Source: Candidatus Omnitrophota bacterium
GTDB taxonomy: Bacteria; Omnitrophota; Gorgyraeia; 2-01-FULL-45-10
Length of the DNA: 64,000 nt
NCBI GenBank assembly: GCA_903843285.1
Contig: CAIMPC010000057.1
Span: forward strand, 6,456 to 70,455
Direction: 5' to 3'
Shown in pieces: positions 45,941 to 60,601 of the stretch. The position numbers and the translations under genes are program-made. Every line of letters starts with the position of its first letter. Position 1 is the stretch's first letter. The notes under the pieces were generated by a model. The model had not been told where the DNA came from, ran no database searches, and was given only the letters and a program-made list of their open reading frames with translations.

Positions 45941-45996
45941 TCAAAATGAGGCCTGGCCAGATTAGACCTCGCATCGGATCTAACCTGGCCAGATCT
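45941..45996 (-). terminator. Possible intrinsic terminator after the gvpJ-like gene. Imperfect hairpin flanked by an ATCTGGCCAGG direct repeat and followed by a short U-run.
   Basis: On the minus strand: gATCTGGCCAGGttagatccgatgcgaggtctaATCTGGCCAGGcctcattttga. Confidence 0.3.
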
Positions 45997-45999
45997 GAC

Positions 46000-46305
46000 T
46001 TATTTCGCCTTTATCTTCGCTTCCAGATGATCTAATCTCTTTTTCAGCAGCACATTCTCTTTTGCTATCTCATTGTCCTTTGCTTTTGAAGACAGGTAGG
46101 AATCCTGCTGCCACCAATTTATCCCCATCTCCATTGCCTTATCAACTGAGGCGACCAATAACCTTATCTTAATATTGAGAAGATCAATATCGGCAATCTG
46201 GATCTTTATGTCCCCGGCGATCACGATCCCTTTATCTAATACCCGCTCTAAAATATCCGCCAGATTTGTAGCATCGTTGGCATGTATCATCTTTGTGTTA
46301 GGCAT
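46000..46305 (-). CDS. gvpJ: Gas vesicle protein GvpJ-like (GvpA-family core with a C-terminal extension).
   Basis: LADILERVLDKGIVIAGDIKIQIADIDLLNIKIRLLVASVDKAMEMG matches the GvpA/J hydrophobic core. Confidence 0.75.
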   Translation of the reverse strand: MPNTKMIHANDATNLADILERVLDKGIVIAGDIKIQIADIDLLNIKIRLLVASVDKAMEMGINWWQQDSYLSSKAKDNEIAKENVLLKKRLDHLEAKIKAK

Positions 46306-46325
46306 AACACATTCTCCTTTTCTGT

Positions 46326-46607
46326 TTATGCTAGCTTTTTCACTTTTATAATTATATCCGCCGCCCTCTTGCGTAAGCTCGCTATATACCGGCAGTTTTC
46401 ACAATCAATGTTTGCGCTCTTATAGTCCTGGCAGGCAAGCAGTACATCCGCCTCTTTCCGCAGCTCTTCGGCAAATACCGCTTTTCCCACCACTCCCTCG
46501 ATCGCATTGATCTTATTCGTGATATCTTTTATCACCGCCTCCTGCTTTTGAAATATAGCACAGTTTACCTTAGCGCCGTCTTCACGATCCATATTTTCTC
46601 CTCTCAC
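46326..46607 (-). CDS. Small hypothetical protein in the gvp cluster (93 aa, Cys-containing).
   Basis: Tightly packed between gvpJ and gvpK. No recognised motif. Confidence 0.45.
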   Translation of the reverse strand: MRGENMDREDGAKVNCAIFQKQEAVIKDITNKINAIEGVVGKAVFAEELRKEADVLLACQDYKSANIDCENCRYIASLRKRAADIIIKVKKLA

Positions 46608-46939
46608 ATTAAATCTCCTAAGGGCCCTAAATTAATGTTCAATTCCTCATCCTTAAGCCCGAAGATCTCTTTCAAATCCTTCATTTTGTTCTCTAACTTC
46701 ATCAATGTTTCACCGATCCGCTCGACCTCCTCGTCGGTAAGAGAACCCGCCTCTACCCTTCTCATCGCCTGTTTTTCCATTAACTTCCGAATCAGTTCTA
46801 TGAGAGTAAGAACCAGCTTCGCCAATCCCTTCTCCACGTTTTCAGGATTTGCCTCGATCTTTTTAGGCAGCGCATCCTTAACTTTTTCCATCTCGCCGGC
46901 AAAAATCTCGAGAGAATCCGTCTCGATTGTTTTACTCAT
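46604..46939 (-). CDS. gvpK: Gas vesicle protein GvpK.
   Basis: GLAKLVLTLIELIRKLMEKQAMRRVEAGSLTDEEVERIGETL...LNINLGPLGDL matches the GvpK consensus. Confidence 0.8.
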   Translation of the reverse strand: MSKTIETDSLEIFAGEMEKVKDALPKKIEANPENVEKGLAKLVLTLIELIRKLMEKQAMRRVEAGSLTDEEVERIGETLMKLENKMKDLKEIFGLKDEELNINLGPLGDLM

Positions 46940-47739
46940 AGCTGCCTACCATCCTTTTCTTCCGGATATTTGTGTTGCAATATAGTTTCGATCAAATCAG
47001 GCCCGCCAAACTTCCTATCCCCGGAATGACTTAACGTGATAAAATTATACGCCGGCCACGGGCCGCTGAGCATATACTTAAGATCTCCTCCGGAAGAGCG
47101 CAATTCCTCGAACGCTTCCATAAAGTCATCTTTCTTTTTCCTGTCCACCAGATAGGCGGCGCTTAGGAGCAGATTGTCGGTCTTTAATTTTTCGAGTTTT
47201 TTTTCGGAGACGTACCTGTTCAAAAACTCATCTACGATAGAGATGCATCTATCCGCCTCTTCTTCGAACTCTTTGTCTATCTTGTACTTTTCGAACTTCT
47301 CTTTCATGAATTTAGCTCCTGACTGCACGGCGTTCACCGGAGCGCTTTCGTCCTTATGGGCACTTGCTATTCTATCTTTTATGACATTGCCCGCCCAAAT
47401 AACCTTTATGCCGAATTCGCACTTACCGTACACCCGGTCTAAGTTCTCTGTAAAATCCTCATAATGATCTTTCACCCTTAAAAGCATCTCTTCTTTTCCT
47501 GCAAAAACCGTATATAGTCTCATCGGCAGAACGGTGAATCTGTCCATCAGCGCTTCCACGATTTCCTCGTGCTTTAAAACAGACTCTTCGGTTTTGATTT
47601 GGACCTGGGGATCGAGATTACTCACCACTATTCCGATATCGCGATAAGGGATACTATAAATAGGGGCCTCGCATAGTCCCTTATTGGATTCGTCCATCTC
47701 CTTATTAGAATCGATTATGGCATAGACATATAATCTCAT
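46936..47739 (-). CDS. Gas vesicle protein GvpF/GvpL family (paralog 1).
   Basis: YVYAII...GIVVSNL...VLPMRL... and C-terminal SGPWPAYNF. Confidence 0.75.
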   Translation of the reverse strand: MRLYVYAIIDSNKEMDESNKGLCEAPIYSIPYRDIGIVVSNLDPQVQIKTEESVLKHEEIVEALMDRFTVLPMRLYTVFAGKEEMLLRVKDHYEDFTENLDRVYGKCEFGIKVIWAGNVIKDRIASAHKDESAPVNAVQSGAKFMKEKFEKYKIDKEFEEEADRCISIVDEFLNRYVSEKKLEKLKTDNLLLSAAYLVDRKKKDDFMEAFEELRSSGGDLKYMLSGPWPAYNFITLSHSGDRKFGGPDLIETILQHKYPEEKDGRQL

Positions 47740-47742
47740 CTT

Positions 47743-48036
47743 TTACGTCGGCTCCTCGGTTGCGCCAGGCATAGGAGCTCCTCTTAAGTGCTCCATCGTC
47801 TCTACTGAGCTCAAGAGAACCCTTAATCCTAAATATACAAGATCCACATCAGCTACGGAAATAACTATATCTCCGGATATGACTACGCCCTTTGTCAGAG
47901 CCCTATCCAGGATCTCTAAAAGCGTGACCCTTTCCTTCTTACGAAGATCTAAATAGCTTTTCTTATCCTGCGTGGTTTTTATCGGATTATCCATCGTGCA
48001 TCCTTTTATTGTAGGGCAGGCTTTAACTTGTCCCAC
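47743..48036 (-). CDS. GvpA/GvpJ/GvpM-family small hydrophobic gas vesicle protein.
   Basis: LLEILDRALTKGVVISGDIVISVADVDLVYLGLRVLLSSVETME. Confidence 0.7.
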   Translation of the reverse strand: MGQVKACPTIKGCTMDNPIKTTQDKKSYLDLRKKERVTLLEILDRALTKGVVISGDIVISVADVDLVYLGLRVLLSSVETMEHLRGAPMPGATEEPT

Positions 48037-48115
48037 TATCTAATAACCCGAACTGTAGCGCACATTTAAAGATGCGCCACTTCTCACTACATTGAGAGTT
48101 TACAAAAAAAGAAGG

Positions 48116-48919
48116 TTAAATCTGACTTACCTGCTTACAGAAATTATAAGGCGGCCAGGGGCCCGTGCAGTCAAATATCAGCCCCTTATCCGCATATTTA
48201 GCCTTGAGACATGATATAACATTTTCAAACTCTTTGATCCGCTTGCTGCTTATCAAAAACGCGGCGTTTAACACCATATCCTCTTTCTTTTCCGTTACCT
48301 CTTTAGGTAATATATTATTAATCTTAGCATTCACAGCGACTATTTTTAATCTTTCAAAACAGTCCTTTGTGTATTCAGAGATCTTTTCGTTAATGATATC
48401 TTTTACTATCTCTTCCTTTTTCTTCTTTAAAAAGAATGCCTTGCCCGGGCCGGCGGCGAGAATTTCTTTGTCTTGCGCTATGATCCGTTCGTTCTTTGAG
48501 CAAAGGGTATCTTTAAAATATTCACTGCTACAGTATATCTTAAGGCCCCGCTCCTCTTTACCCTCCAGAAAATCCAGCACAGTCTTAAACTCGAGATTAT
48601 TTGCTTTAAGCAATTTTTCTACATTCGCTTTGCACTCAAAAACCGTACCGAATTTAAAAGGCAGCACGGTTTGCTCTTTCATGATCTTCTCTATCACCTT
48701 CTCGTGAAGCCGGATATTTCTCTCCACCCAACTCATGTCGGTCAGATGCCTTTTTAGATTTATCTCACTAAAGTCTTCGGGCGAGACGCTGCTGATAACC
48801 GCGTAAGTCCCCTGAAAATAAACAAGCTCGACCTTAACCCCTAAATCCGCAAAATCATAAGATGGAAGACTATCCTTTGTAACACAGTACAAATAGAGGA
48901 GCTCTTTCACCGCGATCAT
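48116..48919 (-). CDS. Gas vesicle protein GvpF/GvpL family (paralog 2).
   Basis: LYLYCV... and C-terminal TGPWPPYNF. Confidence 0.75.
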   Translation of the reverse strand: MIAVKELLYLYCVTKDSLPSYDFADLGVKVELVYFQGTYAVISSVSPEDFSEINLKRHLTDMSWVERNIRLHEKVIEKIMKEQTVLPFKFGTVFECKANVEKLLKANNLEFKTVLDFLEGKEERGLKIYCSSEYFKDTLCSKNERIIAQDKEILAAGPGKAFFLKKKKEEIVKDIINEKISEYTKDCFERLKIVAVNAKINNILPKEVTEKKEDMVLNAAFLISSKRIKEFENVISCLKAKYADKGLIFDCTGPWPPYNFCKQVSQI

Positions 48920-49179
48920 TCTCCCGGGCTAAGAGTCCCTTTGCGCTCGTAGGATTCTACCTCCAGGTCACCGCTTAGTTTAAGGGCGTATATATTCCTG
49001 TCCTGCACTTTCGTAGAAAGCCCGAGAGACTTGATAAATGAACTCGCTTCAAAAACCTCTGCTTCACATTCCCACCCATCGCCAACCTTTGAGACCTTGA
49101 TCACTGTTACGTCCTTGACGCTGAGGGTCTTCCTTAAAAAATCTATAACCTCTTTTTTCGCACCTTCTATATTGGCCAT
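48916..49179 (-). CDS. Small hypothetical protein in the gvp cluster (87 aa).
   Basis: Translationally coupled (4-nt overlap) with the downstream GvpF/L gene. Family not recognised. Confidence 0.45.
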   Translation of the reverse strand: MANIEGAKKEVIDFLRKTLSVKDVTVIKVSKVGDGWECEAEVFEASSFIKSLGLSTKVQDRNIYALKLSGDLEVESYERKGTLSPGE

Positions 49180-49181
49180 TT

Positions 49182-49424
49182 CTATTCTCCCTCTTCCTCT
49201 TTTGCTTTTCTGATAGCGTCCAATCGCGCCAAAAGTTCCGCTTCCTGTTTATTAAACTCTTGCTCATTGATCTTATCCAGCTCAAATCGCATCTGTAGTT
49301 CCATAAGTTTCTCTTTTATGAGCCCTTCATCAGAAAATTCCTTTTCCACCACATTATCGATCTTTTTAGCCAGCCAAATTATGCCATTTAATGGCGCGAG
49401 TAATATATCATCCAGTAAAAACAT
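49182..49424 (-). CDS. gvpG: Gas vesicle protein GvpG.
   Basis: MFLLDDILLAPLNGIIWLAKKI...LMELQMRFELDKINEQEFNKQEAELLARL matches the GvpG consensus. Confidence 0.75.
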   Translation of the reverse strand: MFLLDDILLAPLNGIIWLAKKIDNVVEKEFSDEGLIKEKLMELQMRFELDKINEQEFNKQEAELLARLDAIRKAKEEEGE

Positions 49425-49425
49425 T

Positions 49426-50196
49426 TTAGTATCCCATCGTTTCGATCACGAGGTTCACAAAATTAAAGGGAGGCAGTGTTCCCACATATTTAAATTTTAT
49501 CTTGTCATCATATTTATCCGCGAGGATCTGAACATTCCGGTCAAATTCCGTTTCATTCGCATTCTCTACCAGAAATGCGGCGCTTATGATCATCAGCTCA
49601 CCATAAGGATTGTTGACCTTCGTATCTTTCGCCAAAGGCGATAGCGTCTCTAAAATCTCCTTCTTGTACATATCCTTCTGTTCCTGCAGGGCGGCTTCGA
49701 CTTTCCTGCCGGCCTCCATACGCAGATAGTAGGTCTTTGCCGGCGGCTCGGATGACAACGCTTTTTTAATTTTCTTAATATCTTCGTAATTCTCCGCTAT
49801 CTCTTTATATATTACGTCTTCCTTGAATATAGCGCGTAAACCCAGTTCTTTTTTACCTTCTATATTTTTTAGCATGCCGGTAAATTTATCATGCTCTTTT
49901 TCCAATATCTTTTTTACTTTATTTTCATCCTGGGCAATGGTGCAAAATCGTACCGGCAAAACCGTATATTTTTTCATTATCTCCTCTATCGCCTTCTCAT
50001 GGGCAAGCATATTCTCTCTCGAGACTGCATAGCTTATTATCGGAGAATTACTGACTACGGCCGCGATATCCTTATAAAGGATGGAATGCAGTTCATCACC
50101 TCGTCCGCCAATCCCGAGAGCTCCAAAGGATTCGGCCTCTTTTGACGCGATAATACAATATATATACTTACCTTCTTTTCCTGCAGTATCCTTCAT
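49426..50196 (-). CDS. Gas vesicle protein GvpF/GvpL family (paralog 3).
   Basis: KYIYCIIAS...AAVVSNS...VLPVRF... and GTLPPFNFVNLVI. Confidence 0.75.
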   Translation of the reverse strand: MKDTAGKEGKYIYCIIASKEAESFGALGIGGRGDELHSILYKDIAAVVSNSPIISYAVSRENMLAHEKAIEEIMKKYTVLPVRFCTIAQDENKVKKILEKEHDKFTGMLKNIEGKKELGLRAIFKEDVIYKEIAENYEDIKKIKKALSSEPPAKTYYLRMEAGRKVEAALQEQKDMYKKEILETLSPLAKDTKVNNPYGELMIISAAFLVENANETEFDRNVQILADKYDDKIKFKYVGTLPPFNFVNLVIETMGY

Positions 50197-50970
50197 CTAC
50201 TTCTCCCACTCCTCAGGATATATAACGATATTGACGAAGTTAAATACGGGTAAAGGTCCCGTATACATAAATTTCACTCTTCTCCCATGCTGTTCGCCCA
50301 GATCGCACATTATATTATCAAACTCTTTCTCCCTGCCTTTATCCACCAAAAACGCGGCGTTCATGAACATCTCATCGCCCACAGTCTTATTGAGCTTATG
50401 ATCAAAGGCTGTCCTCCTCAGCGCTTCTACAATGCCTTCAGCCTCTTTATCTTTCTTCTTTTCCAGAGCCCTCTCCACCATCTTACCTATTTCATTTTTG
50501 GCCTGAATATTTTTTTTACTATTATCTTTCAGAAGCTTCTTTTTTAACAGCTCAATCGCTTTATTCTCATCTACAATTTCTTTGAATATAGCGGGCATAT
50601 TATTCCATATGCCTTTAACACCCAATTCTACTTTATGATCCACGTCACGTAACGCACTCTTAAACTCTCTGTATCTTTTGCTTAGGAGATTTCTTATTTC
50701 ATCGGCGTTTGACGCGATAGTCCCGAACCTTACCGGAAGCACACCGTCAAACTCCTTCATCACTGCCTCGATCACCCGTTCATGTGTAAGCATATTCTCT
50801 GAGTTAACGGTTAATTTAGATAGAGGGTGACTGCTCACGACCATGCTTATGTCGTCATAGCCTATGGTTGAGACATCGTCACCTCTTTCACCTATTCCTA
50901 TAGGCCCGAAACTTCTCTCCTGCGACGAAGCTATAACGCAATATATATACCGTCCTTCCTTCTGTATCAT
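50197..50970 (-). CDS. Gas vesicle protein GvpF/GvpL family (paralog 4).
   Basis: RYIYCVIAS...SMVVSSH...LPVRFGTI... and TGPLPVFNFVNIVI. Confidence 0.75.
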   Translation of the reverse strand: MIQKEGRYIYCVIASSQERSFGPIGIGERGDDVSTIGYDDISMVVSSHPLSKLTVNSENMLTHERVIEAVMKEFDGVLPVRFGTIASNADEIRNLLSKRYREFKSALRDVDHKVELGVKGIWNNMPAIFKEIVDENKAIELLKKKLLKDNSKKNIQAKNEIGKMVERALEKKKDKEAEGIVEALRRTAFDHKLNKTVGDEMFMNAAFLVDKGREKEFDNIMCDLGEQHGRRVKFMYTGPLPVFNFVNIVIYPEEWEK

Positions 50971-52019
50971 TCTCTTACCCTCACCAATATAGGATCGTTA
51001 TTTTGACCTGCCTGCCCGACTGATAATGCTGCATCGGTCAGGCGGGCCTGGTTAAGAGCCGTGCAGTATTCTGTAAGTATTCTGTATGCCCTGTTCACCT
51101 CATCAAATTCTTTTCCGGCGCTGAATGAACCCGGGTTTCTGTCCGGGTGAGTGAAAACCGCCTGCCTCTGATAGGCTTTTTTGACCTCGTCCTTGCTTGT
51201 AATATCGCTTAAGATCCCCAGCCTTTTCTTCGCCCAACCTATATCTTCATTACTTATACTATTCGTCTCGAGGGTATAAAAGCTATAAGGCGGAAGAGGG
51301 CCGATGCACCTGAAATTCAGTCGTTCATTGAATTTGATATTTAGCTCTTCCACCTTCATATCAAAGTCTTTATGCTTAGCTTTATCAATTAGAAAAGCTA
51401 TATTAATTACCATCTTATCATCCATGGGCTCATGTACTTTTAAGGCCTGGCTTACGCTTTTAAGGGTATCTTGTATCTGCTTAGAATACAACTCCCTATC
51501 TCTATCCAACGCGTCTTTGACCATAAGCCCAATCTTCATCTGGTCATCCACGGTTACGCCTCCGGGTGAGGATAAAAGCCGATCCTTAAATTCCCGGATC
51601 TCCTTGCTTTCCCCTATTCCTTTAATGATCGAATAGAAGTCACCCCAAATGGCCGTTACGTCAATCTCGATCCTGTCAGATATTTTAGTGAAGACATCTT
51701 TAATTACAGTATAACCGCATGCCAATATATGTTTAACCTCATCCTCATCTTTGGCAAAGATCCCCAACCTCATAGGAATGATTGTATGGTTCAAACTCAT
51801 GATCTTTTCGATAGCCTTTTGATGTCTCACTAAAAACATAGCTAAAACGTCTTTGCGCATCCGCGTATAATCAACTATTTCAGAATCGCTCACTACAGCC
51901 GAAATATCCCGATAAGAAACGGTATAGACCTCTTCGCAGTCAGTAACCCCGTAAGAGCCAAAGAATACCTCTTTATCAGAATTTAAAACTCCGTAAATAT
52001 ATTTACCGCTATATTTCAT
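50967..52019 (-). CDS. GvpF/GvpL-family domain fused to a C-terminal DnaJ J domain (paralog 5).
   Basis: The N-terminal about 265 aa is GvpF/L-like (KYIYGVL..., IGPLPPYSF). The C-terminus WAKKRLGILSDITSKDEVKKAYQRQAVFTHPDRNPGSFSAGKEFDEVNRAYRILTE has J-domain helices II/III and the HPD motif. Confidence 0.7.
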   Translation of the reverse strand: MKYSGKYIYGVLNSDKEVFFGSYGVTDCEEVYTVSYRDISAVVSDSEIVDYTRMRKDVLAMFLVRHQKAIEKIMSLNHTIIPMRLGIFAKDEDEVKHILACGYTVIKDVFTKISDRIEIDVTAIWGDFYSIIKGIGESKEIREFKDRLLSSPGGVTVDDQMKIGLMVKDALDRDRELYSKQIQDTLKSVSQALKVHEPMDDKMVINIAFLIDKAKHKDFDMKVEELNIKFNERLNFRCIGPLPPYSFYTLETNSISNEDIGWAKKRLGILSDITSKDEVKKAYQRQAVFTHPDRNPGSFSAGKEFDEVNRAYRILTEYCTALNQARLTDAALSVGQAGQNNDPILVRVRE

Positions 52020-52171
52020 GATACCTGTCTTTCAATGCGTGATTCAATTTCACTCGACATCCATAAAAGGCCTAAGCTATTTTTATTCCGGAGTTTTCGT
52101 CTTTTTCCTTAGTACGCCGACTAATAATTTCTTAAAACTGTCCACCAAACCCTTGATTAGGCTTGCCATGC

Positions 52172-54349
52172 TTAAGCCTCCCTTTTCTTTATTATCTTCA
52201 CGGCTTCATCGAAGAATTTTTTCTTTATGGTAAAAGTTTTTAACTTCTCTTCGCTGATCTTGCCTTTTTCTTTTTCCAGAAAATCCCTCATCGAAAGGAT
52301 CGAAGCGCTCCTTACTACCGATTCTATATCCGCGCCGGTAAAATTATCCGCTTCAATCGCTAATTTTTTAAGATCAACGTCGCTGTCCAGAGGCTTTTCT
52401 TTTGTGTGTATTTTATAGATCTCCAGCCTTGTTTTCTCGTCGGGAAGAGGAAGCTCTAAAAGCAGATCGAATCTTCCCGGCCGCAATACTGCTTTGTCAA
52501 CAAGATCCACTCTATTGGTAGCCCCAAGGATAAGCACTCCTTTTAGCTCTTCTATTCCATCCATTTCGGTCAGGAACTGACTGATAACCCGTTCGGATAC
52601 ATGGGAAGCATCTCCGCCGCTTCTGAGAGGGACTATGGAATCCATCTCATCAAAAAATAATATGCAGGGCGATGCCTGTTTTGCTTTACGAAATATCTCG
52701 CGGATTCCTTTTTCGCTCTCGCCAACGTATTTAGACACCAGCTGAGGCCCTTTAATAGAGATGAAGTTAACCCCGCTCTCGCTGGCCACTGCCTTAGCCA
52801 ATAACGTCTTTCCCGTGCCCGGGGGGCCATAAAGCAGGATCCCTTTAGGCGGGTTAGTGTCGGCTTTCTTAAAAAGTTCGGCATATTTTAGCGGCCATTC
52901 CACGGTCTCCATCAGCCGCTTTTTTATATCTTCCAGGCCTCCTACGTCGCTCCATTTGACATCCGGCACCTCCACAAAAACCTCTCTGATCGCCGATGGC
53001 TCAATCTCTTTCATCGCTTCTAAAAAATTATTCATGCCCACTTCCAGCTTCATCAGTGTCTCGTAGGGGATCTCCGCCATTTCAAAATCTATCTTGGGCA
53101 GGATCTTTCTTAAGGCTGACATAGCCGCTTCCCGCGCCAAGGCCTCCAGATCCGCGCCTACGTATCCATGTGTAATCTCAGCCAGTTTCTCAATGCTTAC
53201 GTCTTCCGCTAACGGCATGCCCCGCGTGTGAATCTGGAGTATCTCCAATCTTCCGTTTTTATCGGGGATAGGAATGGACATTTCCCTGTCAAATCGGCCC
53301 GGACGCCTCAGAGCGGGGTCTATTAAGTTAGGTACGTTTGTCGCCGCCATAACAATAACCTGTCCTCTGGATTCCAATCCATCCATCAAAGACAGGAGCT
53401 GAGCTACCACTCTGCGCTCAACCTGTTTCTCCGCGCCCATATCCTCTCTTTTTGGAGCGATGGATTCAATTTCATCTATAAAGATTATTGCCGGGGCATG
53501 AGCCTTAGCGTCTTCAAATAGCGAGCGAAGCCGCTGTTCCGCCTCACCGTAAAATTTCCCCATGCACTCGGGTCCGCTCATACTGATAAAATATGCGTCG
53601 GTCTCATTGGCTACCGCGCGGGCGATTAATGTCTTTCCGCAACCCGGAGGCCCGTAAAAAAACACTCCCTTAGGCGGCTGGATTCCCAGCCTCTCAAATA
53701 CTTCAGGAAATCTTAATGGAAGTTCAACCATTTCTCTGATCCTTTGGATCTGAGTGCCCAGCCCGCCAATATCTTCGTAGGAAATTTTGGCATGTTTACC
53801 TTCCGCCGCTTCTTTATCGTCCGATGCTCTCCCTTTCGTCTCCATCCTTATCAGAGTAGAAGAACCTATTATAACTACTCCGCCGGGGATGGTATCCTCT
53901 ACTTTAAAATCGCACGCCTTGGTCCCGAAGAGAGTAGCCCTGATTTTATCGCCTTTCATAACCGGCAGTCCTGCGACAAGTGACCCGATATACTTAGTAT
54001 CTTGATCTCCCCGCAGCGCAGTGGATGCTGTCAGAGAAGAGAGCGTAATCTTATTGGCAGGCTTAGAATCAACCTTGCGGATCTTCACCTTATCATCCAA
54101 TCCGATATCCGCGTTATCCCTGGCTATCCCATCTATCTGAATGATCTTTTTCCCTCGCTCATCAGCATAACAGGGCATCAGTTTCGCCGCGGTCTTCCTC
54201 TTCCCTTCAATCTCAACGATCTCCCCGACTTCCAGCCCTAAGATTTTTAAATCCTCCGGGTCGATCCGGGCGATTACCCTGCCGACATCTTTTGGCAGAG
54301 CTTCTTTTACTTTCAGAGTCAAGCCCTTATCGTCTTTTTTCGTCGTCAT
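52172..54349 (-). CDS. CDC48/VCP-like AAA+ ATPase (N domain plus two AAA+ modules) embedded in the gvp cluster.
   Basis: Two Walker A motifs GPPGCGKTL and GPPGTGKTL. Walker B DEID/DEMD. SRH regions. An N-terminal double-psi-barrel-like segment. Confidence 0.85.
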
Positions 54350-55284
54350 TGGAATAACCTCCCGGTATATTTATCTAACGCCTCAATGCCTCTAATCTCA
54401 CTGGCTTGTAATGGCAAAATAGTAGTCTTTAAACCGCTAAATTTTCTTCGTATCTGTTTTATATGTTCTTCCTGGGCATCACTTCTTTCCCGGCAAAACT
54501 GACAATCTCTCGACTCTAAACAATTATTCACCAATAACTGTTTTACTCTTATGCCATACCCGTTTAAATCATTTACCAATCTCTCTGTTTCTAAAATTGC
54601 CATATCTTCAGGGATAGTAACTGCCACAAACTCACATCTTTTCCGATCCTTAAGCAGGTCCTCTATCTTTTTCACTGTCTTCTTCATCTCCATCAGAAAA
54701 TCATCGCCTTCGTCAGGATTATACTTGCCGGAAAAACTTTCTACCATGTATCTGTATTTCCATCGCATCTTCGCTAAAACCTTGATCCACTCATCCAAAA
54801 GCTGCGGCAGAGTCAAAAGTCTTAATGCGTGGCCTGTAGGCGCCGTATCCACAATATATTTATCAAATTTTGCCTCATCTATTAAATCTACAATGGTCTT
54901 AAAACCCATAACCTCATCTATGCCAGGGATAGGTAAAGCGAACATAGAATCAACATCTTCCTGGTCTAGATAAGTAGAGGTGTCAAAAATCTTTTTTATT
55001 TGACCCTCGTATTTTATCTTAAATTGTGAAAGAGCTTTTTTTGCGTTTACTTCCAGGGCGCTTAAATTTTTTACCCCTTTTATTTCTCTTATCTCATCTC
55101 CTACTCTTTGGCCTAAGCTATCTGAAACTGAATGCGCCGGATCGGTGGAGATAACTAATGTCTTAAAACCGTTCTTAGCCAAATAAAGACCCGCGCTCGA
55201 GGCGCAGGTCGTCTTTCCCACTCCGCCCTTTCCGCCAAATAATATTAATTTCAACGCGGCTTCTTTTAATCCTGTTAATGCCAT
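54346..55284 (-). CDS. ArsA/Get3-family P-loop ATPase.
   Basis: Deviant Walker [11 protein letters not shown]. ArsA signature [13 protein letters not shown]-terminal CxxC ([10 protein letters not shown]). Confidence 0.8.
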
Positions 55285-55287
55285 CCA

Positions 55288-55857
55288 CTACTTCTTTATC
55301 TTGATCTCTAGCATACCATTGGTATAGGCTGAAGTCATGTTTTCCGTTTTTAACTTCATGGGGAGCAATACCTCTTTATGGTATTTTCTATCGCCGCTGT
55401 GGGCGGATATATCCAGGATGTCTTCTTTTAAATCTAATTTTATATCCTCCTGACTTACCCCCGGCATCTCAGCGTAGATCTTAACATCTTCTTTTTCATC
55501 AAAGAGATCGGTAATAGGCTCTCTCTCCTCATCAATTTTAGGGCCTTTAGGGGTCTTCTTTATGTTGCCGAACGGCTCTACAATGGGCTTGCCGCCTACC
55601 GCGCTCTTTACAGAAAAACCAAACACGCCTTTCATCCCTTTTTTAAGATGACTTAGATCTATTTCGCCTTCTTGTTTGATTTCACCACCCGATTCTTTTA
55701 GCTTTGTAGCGAAGTCGACCAGTTTCTCTATGCCGCTAAATAGCCCTCCTAAACCTATTTTACCCATGCCAAAATCAATATCTAGACCCTCTTTTTTCTT
55801 CTCTCCATCACCATTCGGGCCTCTATTCGATTGTTTCTTATATTTCTCCATTTTCAT
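55288..55857 (-). CDS. Hsp20/alpha-crystallin-domain small heat-shock protein (GvpH-like position in the cluster).
   Basis: ACD C-terminus ...KYHKEVLLPMKLKTENMTSAYTNGMLEIKIKK (A-x-x-x-NG-x-L-x-I). Gly-rich N-terminus. Confidence 0.7.
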   Translation of the reverse strand: MKMEKYKKQSNRGPNGDGEKKKEGLDIDFGMGKIGLGGLFSGIEKLVDFATKLKESGGEIKQEGEIDLSHLKKGMKGVFGFSVKSAVGGKPIVEPFGNIKKTPKGPKIDEEREPITDLFDEKEDVKIYAEMPGVSQEDIKLDLKEDILDISAHSGDRKYHKEVLLPMKLKTENMTSAYTNGMLEIKIKK

Positions 55858-55877
55858 TCCCCCCTTTTATTATACGC

Positions 55878-56258
55878 TTATTTCTTTGGTACAACGCCCT
55901 TCCCTCTACAGGTCAAGCAGGGGAGGTCCGATCCCTTTTCTCTACCTCTGCATTTACATGTCAAACAGGGTTCGGTATCTTCACTGTTTACACTTATCAC
56001 GCCTTTTCCTTTGCAGACAATACACGCAAGAGCCCTATTCGAGAGCGAACGACCTTCCCCGTTGCAATAAGCGCAAATAACCGCCGGCGATGAAACCCTT
56101 ACATTTCCGGCGCCTGAACAGGCAGAACATTGTGTGCTTTTTTTAGAGGGTATAAGCCCCATCCCTTTACAAAATGCACATCTATAGCTCGTCCTATAAA
56201 GAACTTCTCCTCTTTGACCTACTTTCTGGCTTTTCCAATCAAATGTCTTCCAAATCAT
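55878..56258 (-). CDS. DnaJ-type CxxCxGxG zinc-finger (CR-domain-like) protein.
   Basis: At least five CxxC units: CAFCKGMG, CSACSGAG, CAYCNGEG, CIVCKGKG, CLTCKCRG and CLTCRGKG. Confidence 0.65.
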   Translation of the reverse strand: MIWKTFDWKSQKVGQRGEVLYRTSYRCAFCKGMGLIPSKKSTQCSACSGAGNVRVSSPAVICAYCNGEGRSLSNRALACIVCKGKGVISVNSEDTEPCLTCKCRGREKGSDLPCLTCRGKGVVPKK

Positions 56259-56271
56259 TAAAAAATACCCA

Positions 56272-56577
56272 TCAGTACTGCACAGATAGTTTTTTCATGG
56301 GTTTTGAGGGGACTCTTTTACAAGTCTTGACAGTCTGATCCTCACGCACTTCAAATTGCAATTTTTCAATCCGCCTGCATACGGAATATAAAAGTTTTTG
56401 TGCGGTGGTAATCCTTTTGTTCAATACATAGATCTCTTTCTCGAGCCTATCCTTTTCTCTCCCGCTCACATACAATTCCAGGTAAGCGGATCTTTGCGCT
56501 TTGGGCACAGAACTGCCCCCTATAGAATGTATGCTCTTAATATCCCTAACGCTTATTACCCGCTGTATCCCTTTCAT
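56272..56577 (-). CDS. Hypothetical coiled-coil protein (101 aa) in the gvp cluster.
   Basis: Tight spacing between gvpN and the Zn-finger gene. No recognised motif. Confidence 0.45.
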   Translation of the reverse strand: MKGIQRVISVRDIKSIHSIGGSSVPKAQRSAYLELYVSGREKDRLEKEIYVLNKRITTAQKLLYSVCRRIEKLQFEVREDQTVKTCKRVPSKPMKKLSVQY

Positions 56578-56610
56578 ACGGCCTATCTCCCTTCATATCC
56601 GGGAATCTCT

Positions 56611-57678
56611 TTAAACAGCAACAGCTTCTTTTTTTAACTTCTTACTTGCGCCTACAGTCTTTTTGCCGGCGCGTATAGTCTTCTTATTAACTCTACCGGT
56701 TTCTCCATCAGATCCGGAGGCCTTTTTGGCAATACTGATAGTTTTGCCGGAGCTGACTTCTTTTTTAACTAGCTCTTTCACTATCTCTTTCACCCTATCC
56801 TGATTAGTCTTTGAACCGACTCTGCTTGTCTCAGAAGCCAATATGTCCTGACACATCTGCGTAAAAGCCCCATCGGAGCTTTTTATAGGGGTAACGCCCT
56901 GAACTTTAAGGGTCTTGGCGATCATAATACAGCCGCGGACGGTGGGAGCAAATTCACATTTTCCTGACTCTCTTAAACCCCTCACAATATTGACGATCGC
57001 CCCGGAGTGTTGCCTCGAAAGCTTGGACTTTGCCTGAGTGATAGCCACCTCTGTCTCATAGTCAAAGTAGTCCAGGTCCATGGTGATCATTCTGTCCCTT
57101 AATGCGTCCTGGCTCCTGTGAACGCCGGCATACTCTTCGGGATTAGATGTAAATATAGCGTTAAAGTTCGGATCAACCTTTAAATAAGGCTCTTCTCCGC
57201 CTCTGCCCACAGGCAAATCCATCATCTTCTCCTGTAGGATAGAAAGAAGTATGTTATTCGCCTCAGGCCGGGAACGGGTGAACTCATCATAAATCAATGT
57301 GAATCCGTACTTACAAGCGACGGTCAGTCGATTATCCACCCAGTGCTTTACCATATCTTCTTCAGTCTTTAAGACCCTGGAGATAAACCGGTCCACAACC
57401 TTCTTTATCCTGTAACCGTATTCGCCTCCCACCAGATCGGAGGTGGTGAACTCTTCGTCTCCGTGGATCATAACCACAGGCCTTCCGAGCTTACTTGCTA
57501 TATGCATAGCCAGTGTTGTTTTACCGGAGCCGGATATCCCTCTAAAATGGACAGGGAAACCCGCCTTTATATAGGCAAGTGCCCTGACTGTGATATCCTT
57601 TATATAGCCAGTATCCACGAAGTCCGGTAAAGGACTGGGGTCTAATACTGTGGTCATTTCATCAATCATTTTTTTCAT
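56611..57678 (-). CDS. gvpN: Gas vesicle AAA+ ATPase GvpN (CbbQ/NirQ/GvpN family) with a Lys-rich C-terminal tail.
   Basis: GISGSGKTTLAMHIASKLGRPVVMIHGDEEF.... Walker B LIYDEF. C-terminal KKTIRAGKKTVGASKKLKKEA. Confidence 0.85.
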   Translation of the reverse strand: MKKMIDEMTTVLDPSPLPDFVDTGYIKDITVRALAYIKAGFPVHFRGISGSGKTTLAMHIASKLGRPVVMIHGDEEFTTSDLVGGEYGYRIKKVVDRFISRVLKTEEDMVKHWVDNRLTVACKYGFTLIYDEFTRSRPEANNILLSILQEKMMDLPVGRGGEEPYLKVDPNFNAIFTSNPEEYAGVHRSQDALRDRMITMDLDYFDYETEVAITQAKSKLSRQHSGAIVNIVRGLRESGKCEFAPTVRGCIMIAKTLKVQGVTPIKSSDGAFTQMCQDILASETSRVGSKTNQDRVKEIVKELVKKEVSSGKTISIAKKASGSDGETGRVNKKTIRAGKKTVGASKKLKKEAVAV

Positions 57679-58009
57679 CCCTCTTCCTGGATGTTAATGT
57701 TTTATTCATTGCACTCCAGAGCCTATTTGCTTCAACTAAATCGGCACGGATACCCTTTTCCTTCTTCCTGAAATCATCCCTTAAAGAAGAGACCTTTTTG
57801 ATCAGTTCAATTCTATCTTCGCAAAGTCCCGTCTTTAAGGATTTGGTCATCTCCTTATGAACTTTTCTACAGTGGTCCACAAACTTCCTGGCATTGTCCC
57901 TAATGGTTTCTGCCTGCTGCCTTAAATCCTCCATACTTTTCTTTCTATCCTCACGAGCCGTGGTAATGTTGTCACAAAGAGACTTCATACCACTCGATAT
58001 ATTGCTCAT
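57662..58009 (-). CDS. Small coiled-coil protein (115 aa) sharing an N-terminal motif with the two GvpC-like proteins upstream.
   Basis: The N-terminal MKSLCDNITTAREDRKKSMEDLRQQAETIRDNARKFV motif parallels the MKSITENIISSYDARVKGLTDL...ILGNARSAVKGF motif of 58025..58804. Confidence 0.5.
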   Translation of the reverse strand: MSNISSGMKSLCDNITTAREDRKKSMEDLRQQAETIRDNARKFVDHCRKVHKEMTKSLKTGLCEDRIELIKKVSSLRDDFRKKEKGIRADLVEANRLWSAMNKTLTSRKRDEKND

Positions 58010-58024
58010 ACTTGATCTCCTTTA

Positions 58025-58804
58025 CTAGCTCTTTTTTCTTCCTTTTTTCTTTCCGGCCTTTTTCTTGCTCTTCTTCTCGATGGTCTTCTCAACTGAAACT
58101 ATCTCGTCTCCGGCCTCGATTTTAGGCATTACCCCTGTCCCTCTGGATTTGGCCAGACTGGAAGACATACCCTGCCATGCCGATTTTGCCTTTGCTATAT
58201 CCGAGCCATACTCACCCATGAGTTTACGCGTATCACCCAAAAGTTTTCTGACATCGCCGGATATATTACCGACATATTTTGCCAGGCTGCTTCTTAAGGC
58301 ATCTGACATCTCGTTATGAGCCTCGTCAAATTCCTTCAGTTTCTTTTGAGTATAACCTTCTATATCCTTTACCGATTTAGCAAGAGCTGACCTCGTATCC
58401 TCCAACATCTTCTTCTGATCAGCCGACATCTTTTCCCGATCCGCATGTATGACCTTTAACTTCGCGGCAGTGTCCTTTAACTGTGAGGCCACATCTTTCG
58501 CTATGGCCTTAACAAAAGCTGCCAAGTTTGCGGCCTGCTTTTCACTCATCTCTTCATGGTTCGCCTGAAACCCTTTGAGCATGGAGCCCACATTCTTTTC
58601 CAGATCATTGACAAAACCCGCGAGGTTGCCCGCCAGTTCACCGGCCATCTTCTTCCTGTCCTGGGCAAAACCTTTTACTGCCGATCGGGCATTTCCTAAT
58701 ATACTATTCGTATCGGCTGTTAAATCAGTTAATCCTTTCACCCGCGCATCATAAGACGAGATAATGTTCTCGGTGATGCTTTTCATGCTATCAGCTATTC
58801 CCAT
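58025..58804 (-). CDS. GvpC-like repeat protein (about 33-aa F-x3-H-x2-M-S...V repeats) with a poly-Lys C-terminal tail.
   Basis: Units include KGFQANHEEMSEKQAANLAAFVKAIAKDV, KVIHADREKMSADQKKMLEDTRSALAKSV and KEFDEAHNEMSDALRSSLAKYVGNISGDV. Tail is KKSKKKAGKKKGRKKS. Located directly downstream of gvpA. Confidence 0.55.
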   Translation of the reverse strand: MGIADSMKSITENIISSYDARVKGLTDLTADTNSILGNARSAVKGFAQDRKKMAGELAGNLAGFVNDLEKNVGSMLKGFQANHEEMSEKQAANLAAFVKAIAKDVASQLKDTAAKLKVIHADREKMSADQKKMLEDTRSALAKSVKDIEGYTQKKLKEFDEAHNEMSDALRSSLAKYVGNISGDVRKLLGDTRKLMGEYGSDIAKAKSAWQGMSSSLAKSRGTGVMPKIEAGDEIVSVEKTIEKKSKKKAGKKKGRKKS

Positions 58805-58876
58805 TTTGATACCCTCCTTTTTTATCCTTCGACGCGCTTCGCTTTCTCAGGATTAATCCTGAGTTTGTCGAAGGGT

Positions 58877-59662
58877 TTAGCTCACCTGGTTATTTTGTTT
58901 TTTATCGATCTTCGCTTCATCTATATCAATTGTCTTTGGCGAAAAGGCAAGTTTTTGTCTCTGCTTTCCAAAATCCTGGAGCATTTTGGCAACCTCTTCC
59001 TTCCTTTTCTTCTGCAAGCTTATTCTTTCCACGCGTTGGGACTTAATCTTACTGATCATTAATCTAAAGTCCTTTATCCGAAGATTTTCGCCCTTTGCTA
59101 CAAGATCTGTAAGTTGACGAGGTATCTCTTTTTGTTCGCCCTGAAACTCTCTTAATCTGGAAACAATCTCACTCTTTTGCTTTTCCTGTTTGGTGAAAAT
59201 GGTTTTTAGCGCTGACTGCACATGTCTGATTTTTTCTATTTCTCCCCTGGCAATGGCCTCCTTACATTCTCTCAGAGCTTCCTTTAATACTATAGCGACA
59301 CTCCTCTCCTCGGTAAAATATTCCCTTATTAAGTCTTTCACCTCTTCGGCGCATTCTTCCTGGAATGACAGCACGCTAGCCATTATCTTATCGTAATCCT
59401 TCTTCCTCAGGCTGTCATTTTTGGCGAGAAGATCCCTGAGCTGGCTATTAATCTTCTCCTTTTCCGGATTGTTGCCAAGAAGGGACTCCGGAAGGCAATC
59501 AATTAGTGATTGGGAAACCTCAAATACAGAGCTAAGATTCTCTATTCTGGTTTCATAGGAAGCGAGGATATTCTCTACTGTTTCTTTTGTTCCTTTCAGA
59601 TCTGTCACTTCCTGCATAGCTTTATCCACTCCTCTCTTAGAAGGAACTCCTTGGCTAACCAT
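58877..59662 (-). CDS. Coiled-coil protein, third member of the GvpC-like/N-motif family, immediately downstream of gvpA.
   Basis: VENILASYETRIENLSSV motif. The start is set at the ATG at 59662 with an AGGAG Shine-Dalgarno 6 nt upstream. The longer ORF to 59701 begins with TTG. Confidence 0.5.
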   Translation of the reverse strand: MVSQGVPSKRGVDKAMQEVTDLKGTKETVENILASYETRIENLSSVFEVSQSLIDCLPESLLGNNPEKEKINSQLRDLLAKNDSLRKKDYDKIMASVLSFQEECAEEVKDLIREYFTEERSVAIVLKEALRECKEAIARGEIEKIRHVQSALKTIFTKQEKQKSEIVSRLREFQGEQKEIPRQLTDLVAKGENLRIKDFRLMISKIKSQRVERISLQKKRKEEVAKMLQDFGKQRQKLAFSPKTIDIDEAKIDKKQNNQVS

Positions 59663-59724
59663 GCTTTCTCCTGTTTTTACAGGATGAGGATGGCCGGGCA
59701 AGAACCCCTCTTCAACCTTATCCT

Positions 59725-59940
59725 TTAGGCTGCTGTTGCTGTTAAACCAATAGCCTCAGCATACTTCAGATAAGTCTCGACTGACGCCACTACAACTCTG
59801 GCTTCAACCGCGAGGATCTCTATACCAACTAGAGACACCCTTACCCAAGCATCAACCACCACGCCCTTATCCAGTATACGGTCAATAACTTCGACCAAGC
59901 TGGACGAACCAATCGTTTTCTCGACTGCCATGTGAATCAC
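59725..59940 (-). CDS. gvpA: Major gas vesicle structural protein GvpA.
   Basis: [54 protein letters not shown] is the canonical GvpA sequence. GGAGG Shine-Dalgarno upstream. Confidence 0.95.
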
Positions 59941-60034
59941 CCCCCTCCTTCTACAGAATATGCCACTTTTTTACTGGTGAGGAGCGGCCAACCTCCAAAC
60001 CTCCAAACATCCAAAAACTGCTTCTTAAACGTCC

Positions 60035-60226
60035 TTATGTGTCATTAACCCTATCGAGCCAGCTGGACCAACTGGACTTGTTTCTGCTGTCATCCAAAGC
60101 CGCACCGTTTCTTTGCGAATTATGGCTTTGATATAGCTCGAAATTATTCGTGTCATAGTCTTTGCGGCGACTTGCCGCTTTTTTTAATTCACTTCCTTGT
60201 GATCGCTTCAAATTTATTATATGCAT
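60035..60226 (-). CDS. Small hypothetical leader ORF (about 63 aa) between the sigma-54 promoter and gvpA.
   Basis: ATG at 60226 with a GAGGTG Shine-Dalgarno 8 nt upstream. Polar, low-complexity product. Could be non-coding leader instead. Confidence 0.3.
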   Translation of the reverse strand: MHIINLKRSQGSELKKAASRRKDYDTNNFELYQSHNSQRNGAALDDSRNKSSWSSWLDRVNDT

Positions 60227-60275
60227 ACTAAACACCTCTGTTGCCCTTGGACTCCCGACTACATCTTATATACAT

Positions 60276-60291
60276 AGCAACAAGTGTGCCA
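60276..60291 (-). promoter_or_regulatory. Sigma-54 (RpoN) -24/-12 promoter, TGGCAC-N5-TTGCT, oriented toward gvpA.
   Basis: Minus-strand sequence is TATGGCACACTTGTTGCTATG, with the GG and GC dinucleotides at the canonical 10-nt spacing. rpoN and an NtrC-family activator are encoded in the same window. Confidence 0.6.
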
Positions 60292-60303
60292 TACGTGCAT
60301 CAA

Positions 60304-60445
60304 GGGACTGTTGCGAAATGCAACTTCCGTCATTCTGAGAGAGGCCATCGGCCGACCGAAGAATCTGTTTACCTTCGAGATTCTTCACTTCGCCCTTCGG
60401 GACTCGTTCAGAATGACGCGGAATTTGGCATTTCGCAACAGTTCC
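60304..60445. repeat. Hairpin repeat element copy 7 (full length, both terminal inverted repeats), immediately upstream of the sigma-54 promoter.
   Basis: GGGACTGTTGCGAAATGCAACTTCCGTCATTCTGAGAGAGGCCATCGGCCGACCGAAGAATC...GATTCTTCACTTCGCCCTTCGGGACTCGTTCAGAATGACGCGGAATTTGGCATTTCGCAACAGTTCC. Confidence 0.65.
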
Positions 60446-60601
60446 ATACAAGTAGAGCTATAGTCCAAGCTACTAGAAATATGTAGGAATATTTCAACAC
60501 TTTTGTGGGAATTTGCTTACGATTTTTAATATGCTGCGGGGTTCCCGCGTTTATTCGGATCTGTCAGGACAATTAATCGCTTCAGATGTGAATCTAATCG
60601 G

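Follow-up and report, generated by a model that had tools for sequence, protein, structure and literature searches.

Gas-vesicle (gvp) clusters share a conserved accessory set consisting of gvpF, gvpG, gvpK, gvpL, gvpN and two further GvpA-related genes (PMC9501494), and the reason for which such operons retain several assembly proteins that are homologous and yet essential has been posed as an open question (PMC11445434). The Bacillus megaterium cluster has one F and one L gene (PMC9501494, PMC11445434), and the annotated clusters of Halobacterium and Nostoc/Anabaena carry two GvpF/L copies each. A further type, the ArsA/Hsp20-linked gvp clusters, was described by Castillo and Saier in 2010, with five L/F genes in Polaribacter irgensii and four in Pelodictyon luteolum (PMC2963123). 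Here we analyze a gvp cluster of a Candidatus Omnitrophota bacterium, located at 46000-59940 on the minus strand of a 64,000-nt stretch of DNA (henceforth the window; GCA_903843285.1, contig CAIMPC010000057.1, positions 6,456-70,455, forward strand). We consider it about 80% probable that the cluster is a complete operon for gas vesicles, that it belongs to the widespread ArsA/Hsp20-linked type and that its five GvpF/L genes are ancient positional orthologs and not the outcome of a local expansion.

All 21 open reading frames (ORFs) of the tight, co-directional cluster proposed in the initial annotation are present (Table 1). Consecutive genes are spaced from -17 to +152 bp; seven junctions overlap, six of them by 4 bp and one by 17 bp (s115/gvpN), and the 152-bp gap precedes the gene for GvpF/L paralog 1. 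The cluster contains the whole accessory set cited above, namely, GvpN, GvpG, GvpK, five proteins of the PF06386 family and two extra PF00741 genes. It also has the defining features of the ArsA/Hsp20-linked type with multiple L/F genes, i.e., an arsA homolog and hsp20 within a gvpN-L/F-G-J-K-M cluster that carries four or five L/F copies. Within this type of cluster, a five-copy set is ordinary; it was already in the literature in 2010, and the window is a further example. The less-described content of the operon, a set of chaperone genes and a J-domain fusion, is of more interest than the paralog count.

Five GvpF/L paralogs and their counterparts in related loci

The five ORFs that had been taken for GvpF/L homologs all prove to be full-length members of PF06386, with matches of 176-225 bits against a cut-off of 23.6 bits that extend from profile positions 1-2 to 244-245 of 245; none of them falls into an unrelated family. 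The C-terminal motif reported as GPxPPYxF was recovered in all five in the form G-P-x-P-x-[YF]-x-F, with the G, the second P and the F invariant in a five-way alignment, in which the paralogs are 28-43% identical to the reference paralog FL3. Searches of the PDB with a profile of the five retrieved the GvpF structures 4QSG and 6L5D (E values of 4e-33 and 5e-31, respectively). On the NCBIfam models, paralogs 1-3 score relatively higher with the cyanobacterial GvpF model and paralogs 4-5 with GvpL. The gene order runs parallel to this division: the three GvpF-type genes lie upstream of gvpG, and the two GvpL-type genes are interleaved with the gvpJ/M-like genes and gvpK.

To place the copy number in context, we took the single-copy GvpN as an anchor and, with an alignment of 66 diverse GvpN proteins, searched GTDB with each species represented by one genome. 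This yielded at least 599 stretches with a GvpN relative, from which the closest 80 were taken with up to 10 kb on either side, and their ORFs were annotated with an iterated GvpF/L hidden Markov model together with the window's own proteins. Copies were counted in the 36 loci from different GTDB species, the window included, in which gvpN and gvpK are both on the contig; the resulting distribution describes the window's GvpN clade (the 80 closest GvpN loci) and not all gvp clusters. Three GvpF/L copies were found in 7 of these loci, four in 16 and five in 13, and none had two. The contrast drawn in the initial annotation with the two copies usual in characterized clusters holds insofar as the latter have two or three, but the description of the set as unusually expanded fails, given that 13 of the 36 loci have five. 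The same gene order recurs almost gene for gene, with GvpA, two GvpC-like proteins, GvpN, Hsp20, ArsA, CDC48 and the GvpF/L-J fusion in the first half, and two GvpF/L, GvpG, the GvpO-like protein, GvpF/L, the GvpM-like protein, GvpF/L and GvpK following the fusion in the second. The metagenome-assembled genomes (MAGs) in which it occurs are labelled Bacteroidales/Bacteroidota, Chlorobiaceae, Planctomycetota and Chlamydiota, among others.

In the five-copy loci, the gene at a given position nearly always finds its best match in the window paralog of that position (16/16, 17/17, 16/17, 16/17 and 13/14 for positions 1-5). A neighbor-joining tree of the paralogs from 14 five-copy loci and of reference proteins, with orthogroups defined by gene position, recovered each of the five positional groups as monophyletic (bootstrap values of 100, 100, 89, 99 and 74 for paralogs 1-5). 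Its deepest split separates paralogs 1-3 from 4-5 with a bootstrap of 97, and the second Nostoc paralog and the Octadecabacter paralogs c and d fall on the 4-5 side. Because the paralogs are only 28-43% identical to FL3 and each belongs to its own orthogroup conserved across phyla, specialized, nonredundant roles for the five are plausible on sequence grounds. The phylogeny suggested in the initial annotation delivers five supported positional orthogroups, but the known GvpF and GvpL proteins attach to them weakly.

The weak attachment is one of several points that weigh against our reading of the locus. The cyanobacterial GvpF groups with paralogs 1-3 in 54% of the bootstraps, and Halobacterium GvpF lies on the paralog 4-5 side in 85%, so that the haloarchaeal F and L names do not map cleanly onto the window genes; the tree itself is a neighbor-joining tree built on 254 columns, not a maximum-likelihood one. 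No paralog reaches the NCBIfam equivalog cut-offs (350 bits for GvpF, NF052351; 200 bits for GvpL, NF045778): the highest score with the GvpF model is the 105.7 bits of paralog 3, and with the GvpL model the 89.2 bits of paralog 4. The F- and L-type labels are therefore based on relative scores, on where the paralogs fall in the tree and on the order of the genes. Close relatives without paralog 3 and/or 5 (loci L008, L009, L016, L018-L020 and L025) indicate that some copies can be lost and that not all are indispensable, which argues that some of the paralog sub-roles are dispensable or mergeable. As the MAG labels are inconsistent, the spread over many phyla may in part reflect mislabelling or horizontal transfer. 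Finally, nothing specific on gas vesicles in Omnitrophota/Omnitrophica was found in the literature searched.

Loci L005-L016 and others, with GvpN proteins 79-90% identical to that of the window, carry the labels Chrysiogenales, Patescibacteria group, Pirellulales, Nitrospirae, Elusimicrobia and delta proteobacterium. Such discordance suggests either mislabelled MAGs or horizontal transfer of the cluster. In two related loci (L055, 16499-18205; L061, 11216-11987), GvpF/L genes are split into two or three short ORFs, which may represent frameshifts, pseudogenes or assembly errors.

The J-domain fusion and the embedded chaperone genes

Paralog 1 bears a C-terminal J domain that matches PF00226 with 45.2 bits (cut-off, 27.8 bits). 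An alignment of 65 sequences shows no variation in its HPD motif (residues 291-293); of the 120 best database homologs, 118 keep the motif, as does every one of the 51 fusion proteins from the related loci. An AlphaFold2 model of this protein, the only paralog modelled, has a mean predicted local distance difference test score (pLDDT) of 89.7; it superposes on the GvpF structures 6L5D and 4QSG with template modelling (TM) scores of 0.80-0.82 and on the DnaK-bound J domain of DnaJ (5NRO_B) with a TM score of 0.77 and a root mean square deviation of 1.9 Å. The GvpF-J fusion is present in 31 of the 36 loci with gvpN and gvpK. The identical protein was also found, with the same neighbors, on at least 17 metagenome contigs from several samples, and its named homologs come from Candidatus Omnitrophica/Omnitrophota MAGs (56-75% identity). 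A related protein of 360 amino acids (aa) is encoded on plasmid pOA238_160 of Octadecabacter arcticus 238 (WP_015497776.1; L085, 15763-16845). It combines a GvpL_GvpF domain with a DnaJ domain detected at 28 bits, just above the cut-off, groups with window paralog 1 and is annotated simply as a "GvpL/GvpF family gas vesicle protein"; the fusion hence exists in a cultured alphaproteobacterium. Searches of the literature combining J domain, DnaK or CDC48 with gvp found no discussion of a GvpF-J-domain fusion or of a CDC48 gene in gvp clusters.

The genes that separate gvpN from the GvpF/L block, which the initial annotation listed as accessory proteins, include a series of chaperone genes joined by overlapping junctions or by spacers of 3-20 bp. 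The CDC48/p97-type ATPase has the complete architecture of its family, with CDC48_N, CDC48_2 and two AAA plus lid domains, along with two Walker A and two Walker B motifs. The preceding ArsA-family protein possesses a deviant Walker A motif (P-loop) GKGGVGKT at residue 18 and a CQFC motif at residue 261. Its identity as an arsenite pump subunit was rejected, since it scores only 136 bits with the model of true arsenical-pump ArsA against a cut-off of 650. The small heat-shock protein scores 138.2 bits with the NCBIfam archaeal Hsp20 model, just under the cut-off of 140 bits. Among the 36 loci, Hsp20 and CDC48 each occur in 34 and ArsA in 24. We also rejected the notion that these genes are chance neighbors, in that their position in the operon is conserved in related loci.

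The fourth member of the set, the stand-alone DnaJ-type zinc-finger protein, is conserved in loci L024 and L006 (176-199 bits), and profile-profile comparison with HHalign against all annotated Gvps of Halobacterium, Nostoc and Octadecabacter gave no match. Its gene is uncalled in the public metagenome records with the identical cluster, the tables of which jump from the 101-aa gene to Hsp20. Many relatives have a second, different CxxCxGxG zinc-finger gene between the GvpC-like genes and gvpN, which is absent from the window (e.g., L006, 7803-8132; L017, 3853-4194; L024, 9350-9778; L070, 9425-9745). On plasmid p4 of Nostoc sphaeroides (L087, 7657-11440), the gvp genes are directly followed by one gene for an ArsA of two domains (634 aa) and one for a double-AAA ATPase of 613 aa that lacks the CDC48 N domain, and the pairing of ArsA and AAA ATPases with gvp genes thus extends to cyanobacteria.

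Shell proteins, accessory genes and flanking sequence

As initially annotated, three genes of the cluster encode GvpA-family proteins, all of which match PF00741, and gvpN, gvpG and gvpK are present (Table 1). For the major shell protein, the ATG at 59931 is the likelier start codon, giving a product of 68 aa in agreement with the gene calls on the identical metagenome contigs. Of the two minor GvpA-family proteins, the one encoded upstream has its best NCBIfam match in halo GvpM (E value of 2.5e-10), and its likelier start is the ATG at codon 15, which corresponds to the 83-aa gene called on the identical contigs. The GvpO-like assignment of the small protein encoded after gvpG accords with HHalign probabilities of 87% against Halobacterium GvpO and 64% against Octadecabacter GvpO, and its position is that of the annotated gvpO in Octadecabacter. 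The small Cys-containing protein encoded after gvpK, for which codon 6 is the likelier start (88 aa, again as called on the identical contigs), has homologs in the same position in a few close relatives and found no match in HHalign comparisons with all annotated Gvps of Halobacterium, Nostoc and Octadecabacter.

Table 1. Genes of the gas-vesicle operon and its 3' hairpin, in order of transcription
Feature	Coordinates	Strand	Basis
gvpA, major shell protein	59725-59940	-	PF00741 E 3.9e-15; NCBIfam GvpA NF006874 131.9 bits (cut-off 100 bits)
GvpC-like helical repeat protein, paralog 1, 274-aa ORF	58877-59701	-	HHalign 99.5% probability vs 259-aa neighbor
GvpC-like helical repeat protein, paralog 2, 259 aa	58025-58804	-	HHalign of family profile vs Nostoc GvpC
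Small protein, 115 aa	57662-58009	-	Shares N-terminal region of GvpC-like proteins; overlaps gvpN start by 17 bp
gvpN, AAA+ ATPase	56611-57678	-	TIGR02640 336.8 bits (cut-off 266.8 bits); PF07728 E 1.2e-18
Conserved protein after gvpN, 101 aa, tentatively GvpV-like	56272-56577	-	HHalign 87.8%; no Pfam family
Stand-alone DnaJ-type zinc-finger protein, CxxCxGxG repeats, 126 aa	55878-56258	-	PF00684 E 1.5e-10, 41.6 bits (cut-off 32.7 bits)
Hsp20/alpha-crystallin small heat-shock protein	55288-55857	-	PF00011 E 1e-7
Single-domain Get3/TRC40/ArsA-family ATPase, 312 aa	54346-55284	-	PF02374 E 9.6e-83; TIGR00345 285.9 bits (cut-off 135 bits)
CDC48/p97-type double-ring AAA+ ATPase, 725 aa	52172-54349	-	TIGR01243 933.7 bits (cut-off 802.65 bits)
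GvpF/L paralog 1, GvpF-type, C-terminal J domain	50967-52019	-	PF06386 E 2.3e-55; PF00226 E 1e-11
GvpF/L paralog 2, GvpF-type	50197-50970	-	PF06386 E 2.4e-62; orthogroup bootstrap 100
GvpF/L paralog 3, GvpF-type	49426-50196	-	PF06386 E 2.2e-66; orthogroup bootstrap 89
gvpG	49182-49424	-	PF05120 E 1.4e-19
GvpO-like small protein, 87 aa	48916-49179	-	Weak PF05800 match, E 0.006
GvpF/L paralog 4, GvpL-type	48116-48919	-	PF06386 E 3.7e-55; GvpL model 89 bits vs GvpF 56
GvpA-family minor protein, closest to GvpM/S type	47743-48036	-	PF00741 E 6.5e-15
GvpF/L paralog 5, GvpL-type, most divergent	46936-47739	-	PF06386 E 1.8e-51; GvpL 70 bits vs GvpF 40
gvpK	46604-46939	-	PF05121 E 7.5e-36
Small Cys-containing conserved protein, 88-93 aa	46326-46607	-	No Pfam or NCBIfam family
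GvpA-family minor protein, GvpJ type, 101 aa	46000-46305	-	PF00741 E 7.3e-17; best NCBIfam halo GvpJ E 9.6e-14
Terminator-like hairpin, 17-bp stem	45952-45993	-	Directly 3' of last gene

The two GvpC-like genes and the gene for a small N-motif protein that the initial annotation placed after gvpA are supported by HHalign comparisons, internal repeats and their mutual relationship, but none of the three products has a match to the curated Pfam GvpC family, the 274-aa protein belongs to no Pfam family, and the 115-aa protein has no Pfam or NCBIfam family at all. For the comparison with GvpC, we built family profiles from homologs in the related loci. The profile of the 259-aa protein matches Nostoc GvpC with a probability of 92.9% (E value of 3.7e-7; reversed and shuffled controls, at most 0.4%) and gave no match to Halobacterium GvpC; the protein contains internal repeats of 33 residues, with a score of 59 where the highest-scoring shuffle reached 41. 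On this sequence evidence, it is probably a distant GvpC homolog, and the label "GvpC-like" is fair. The 274-aa protein has an internal repeat with a lag of 109 that scores above the shuffles and 61 homologs in the same position in related loci, and the 115-aa protein matches the 259-aa protein over residues 3-92 at 97% probability; compared directly with GvpC by HHalign, both were negative. The 101-aa protein encoded after gvpN, with 26 homologs in the same position in related loci, has its HHalign match in a 104-aa "gas vesicle protein" of N. sphaeroides p4, which tentatively suggests that it is GvpV-like.

The hairpin beyond the last gene is likely to mark the 3' end of the operon. At the opposite end, the region upstream of gvpA (59941-60601, ~660 bp) is unusually long and lacks a convincing gene; it probably holds the operon promoter and regulatory sites. 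A scan for sigma-70 promoters did no better than chance (22 found against 27.4 expected), and Rfam and tRNA scans of the whole 64-kb window returned no matches. Right after the hairpin and on the same strand are genes for a histidine kinase with a dCache-HAMP-PAS architecture (43570-45825, minus strand) and then a response regulator, which may regulate the gvp operon. Giant genes are characteristic of Omnitrophota, and the window has one 15 kb downstream of the operon on the same strand, a single ORF of 30 kb (633-30692, minus strand) coding for 10,019 aa. Pfam searches detected in its product an embedded SecA-like segment (SecA_DEAD, SecA_PP_bind and P-loop_SecA; residues ~1600-2080) and a weak HD domain near the C-terminal quarter, with the remainder lacking any Pfam family.

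Proposed assembly model, alternatives and comparison with described clusters

When the orthogroup phylogeny is read together with the gene order, the layout looks like the F-G-L-S-K-J core of B. megaterium with F tripled and L doubled. Among the haloarchaeal accessory proteins, GvpF alone binds GvpA monomers, and GvpL serves as a platform and binds both GvpJ and GvpM (PMC9501494); in B. megaterium, GvpA2, GvpF and GvpG form a subnetwork, and the contact of GvpL with GvpA2 depends on GvpS, GvpK and GvpJ, which together represent the proposed seed (PMC11445434). The two blocks of the window operon mirror these interaction subnetworks, and by this analogy we infer a division of labor. The GvpL-type pair would build the nucleation seed jointly with GvpK and both minor members of the GvpA family, and the GvpF-type trio, with GvpG and the GvpO-like protein, would hold the monomeric hydrophobic GvpA and deliver it to the growing shell. 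GvpN is predicted to power shell growth, and the GvpC-like repeat proteins may stiffen the exterior of the shell. The J domain of paralog 1 would recruit the host DnaK/Hsp70, with Hsp20, the Get3-like ATPase, the zinc-finger protein and CDC48 acting as holdase, shield for hydrophobic segments and unfoldase for the shell protein. Such a proteostasis set could keep aggregation-prone shell proteins assembly-competent and clear misassembled material. The pairing of individual paralogs with their clients and the production of vesicles by this operon are likewise predictions of the model.

This line of reasoning can be carried further, to a tentative proposal that we hold at somewhat less than even odds: in this cross-phylum class of clusters, gas-vesicle assembly might be a client-specific chaperone pathway in which GvpF has replaced the substrate-binding part of an Hsp40. 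The GvpF-J protein would bind GvpA or the seed complex and load this client onto the host DnaK via its J domain, and the zinc-finger protein, the small heat-shock protein, the Get3-like shield and the bacterial CDC48 unfoldase would complete a proteostasis line devoted to a highly hydrophobic, amyloid-like shell protein.

Among the alternatives, the one that survives best, although we regard it as unlikely, is that the paralogs form one hetero-oligomeric GvpF/L ring or platform, with the nucleation complex, through its geometry or stoichiometry, setting their number and the J domain serving to tether Hsp70. Haloarchaeal GvpL contacts nearly all Gvps and GvpF and GvpL interact (PMC9501494), the fold-defining motifs are common to all five paralogs, and five paralogs facing three GvpA-family clients do not fit a strict one-to-one pairing. 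However, the F-type genes adjoin gvpG and the L-type genes adjoin gvpJ/M/K, like the two separate subnetworks of B. megaterium (PMC11445434), and relatives that presumably function with three or four copies are hard to square with a fixed hetero-pentamer.

It is less probable still, and in our view a poor account of the locus, that we are dealing with a cryptic cluster or with one whose role is not in buoyancy, along the lines proposed for the Streptomyces gvp clusters, and that its chaperone genes are ordinary stress genes that happen to lie nearby. The literature searched on this lineage reports no vesicles, the Streptomyces clusters are without a known vesicle phenotype (PMC4982088) and most gvp clusters gave no vesicles in Escherichia coli (PMC10344784). 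Unlike the Streptomyces clusters, though, the window has gvpN, GvpC-like genes and a canonical GvpA that scores above its cut-off, while the chaperone genes are intra-operonic, with their position kept in 24-34 of the 36 loci, and the J domain is physically fused to a GvpF paralog. Pelodictyon is a gas-vacuolate genus, and relatives of the same layout are labelled Chlorobiaceae. The green sulfur bacterium P. luteolum has an ArsA/Hsp20-linked cluster with four L/F genes (PMC2963123). The remaining alternative, a recent lineage-specific tandem expansion with copies that are largely redundant or maintained for dosage, could draw on the duplication-like adjacency of three copies (50967-49426) and on the two or three copies of model clusters, but is effectively refuted by the orthogroup analysis and retains next to no credence in the face of the divergence of the paralogs from FL3, the same-position orthologs in loci labelled Bacteroidota, Chlorobiaceae and Planctomycetota (bootstrap values of 74-100) and the five- and four-copy clusters described in 2010 (PMC2963123).

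On the reading as ancient positional orthologs, this type of cluster presents the GvpF/L family as dissected by nature into five sub-roles, each conserved, and the J domain would physically connect one GvpF paralog to the Hsp70 machinery. The chaperone line conserved within the operon, above all the GvpF-J fusion and the bacterial CDC48, merits the attention of specialists. Built-in chaperones might also improve acoustic-reporter constructs, given that most native gvp clusters fail in E. coli (PMC10344784) and that gas-vesicle expression leads to proteotoxic stress (PMC12848028).

Compared with individual known systems, the window paralogs have the fold of GvpF from Microcystis aeruginosa (4QSG) and Anabaena PCC 7120 (6L5D), with profile E values of 1e-31 to 1e-33 at an identity of 22-25%; the cyanobacterial proteins lack a J domain. 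The Octadecabacter arcticus 238 cluster on pOA238_160 resembles the window in having four annotated GvpL/GvpF proteins, Hsp20, GvpG, GvpO, GvpK and a J-domain paralog, but it lacks ArsA and CDC48, has four paralogs instead of five and is borne on a plasmid of an alphaproteobacterium. Serratia sp. ATCC 39006 shares the feature of multiple GvpF homologs (GvpF1, GvpF2 and GvpF3). In-frame deletions of these homologs were among the mutants complemented for vesicle failure (PMC4982088), which by analogy is an experimental precedent for nonredundant paralogs. The Serratia system differs in its three copies, its two operons and its gvrA/B/C regulators, and a J-domain fusion and CDC48/Get3 are unreported there. 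With the gvpA2-R-N-F-G-L-S-K-J-T-U cluster of B. megaterium, the window shares the core order F-G-L-S-K-J, the GvpA-family minor proteins and GvpN, and each of the two window blocks corresponds to a subnetwork of the former (A2-F-G; L with S/K/J). However, B. megaterium has one F and one L against three GvpF-type and two GvpL-type genes and lacks the Hsp20, Get3/ArsA, CDC48, J-domain, zinc-finger and GvpC-like genes of the window, which in turn has no GvpT or GvpU.

The closest likeness is to the clusters of Castillo and Saier, in which hsp20 and a homolog of arsA lie among genes of the order gvpN-L/F-G-J-K-M, the L/F genes numbering five in one case and four in the other. Their ArsA is a two-domain protein of ~600 aa, whereas that of the window and most related loci is a single-domain protein of ~311-326 aa; the window host belongs to a different, uncultured lineage; and the retrieved portion of the text makes no mention of the CDC48 ATPase, the J-domain fusion or the zinc-finger protein, all of which are present in the window (PMC2963123). 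Among the related loci, those labelled Bacteroidota and Chlorobiaceae reproduce the gene order of the window gene for gene, the J-domain fusion and CDC48 included.

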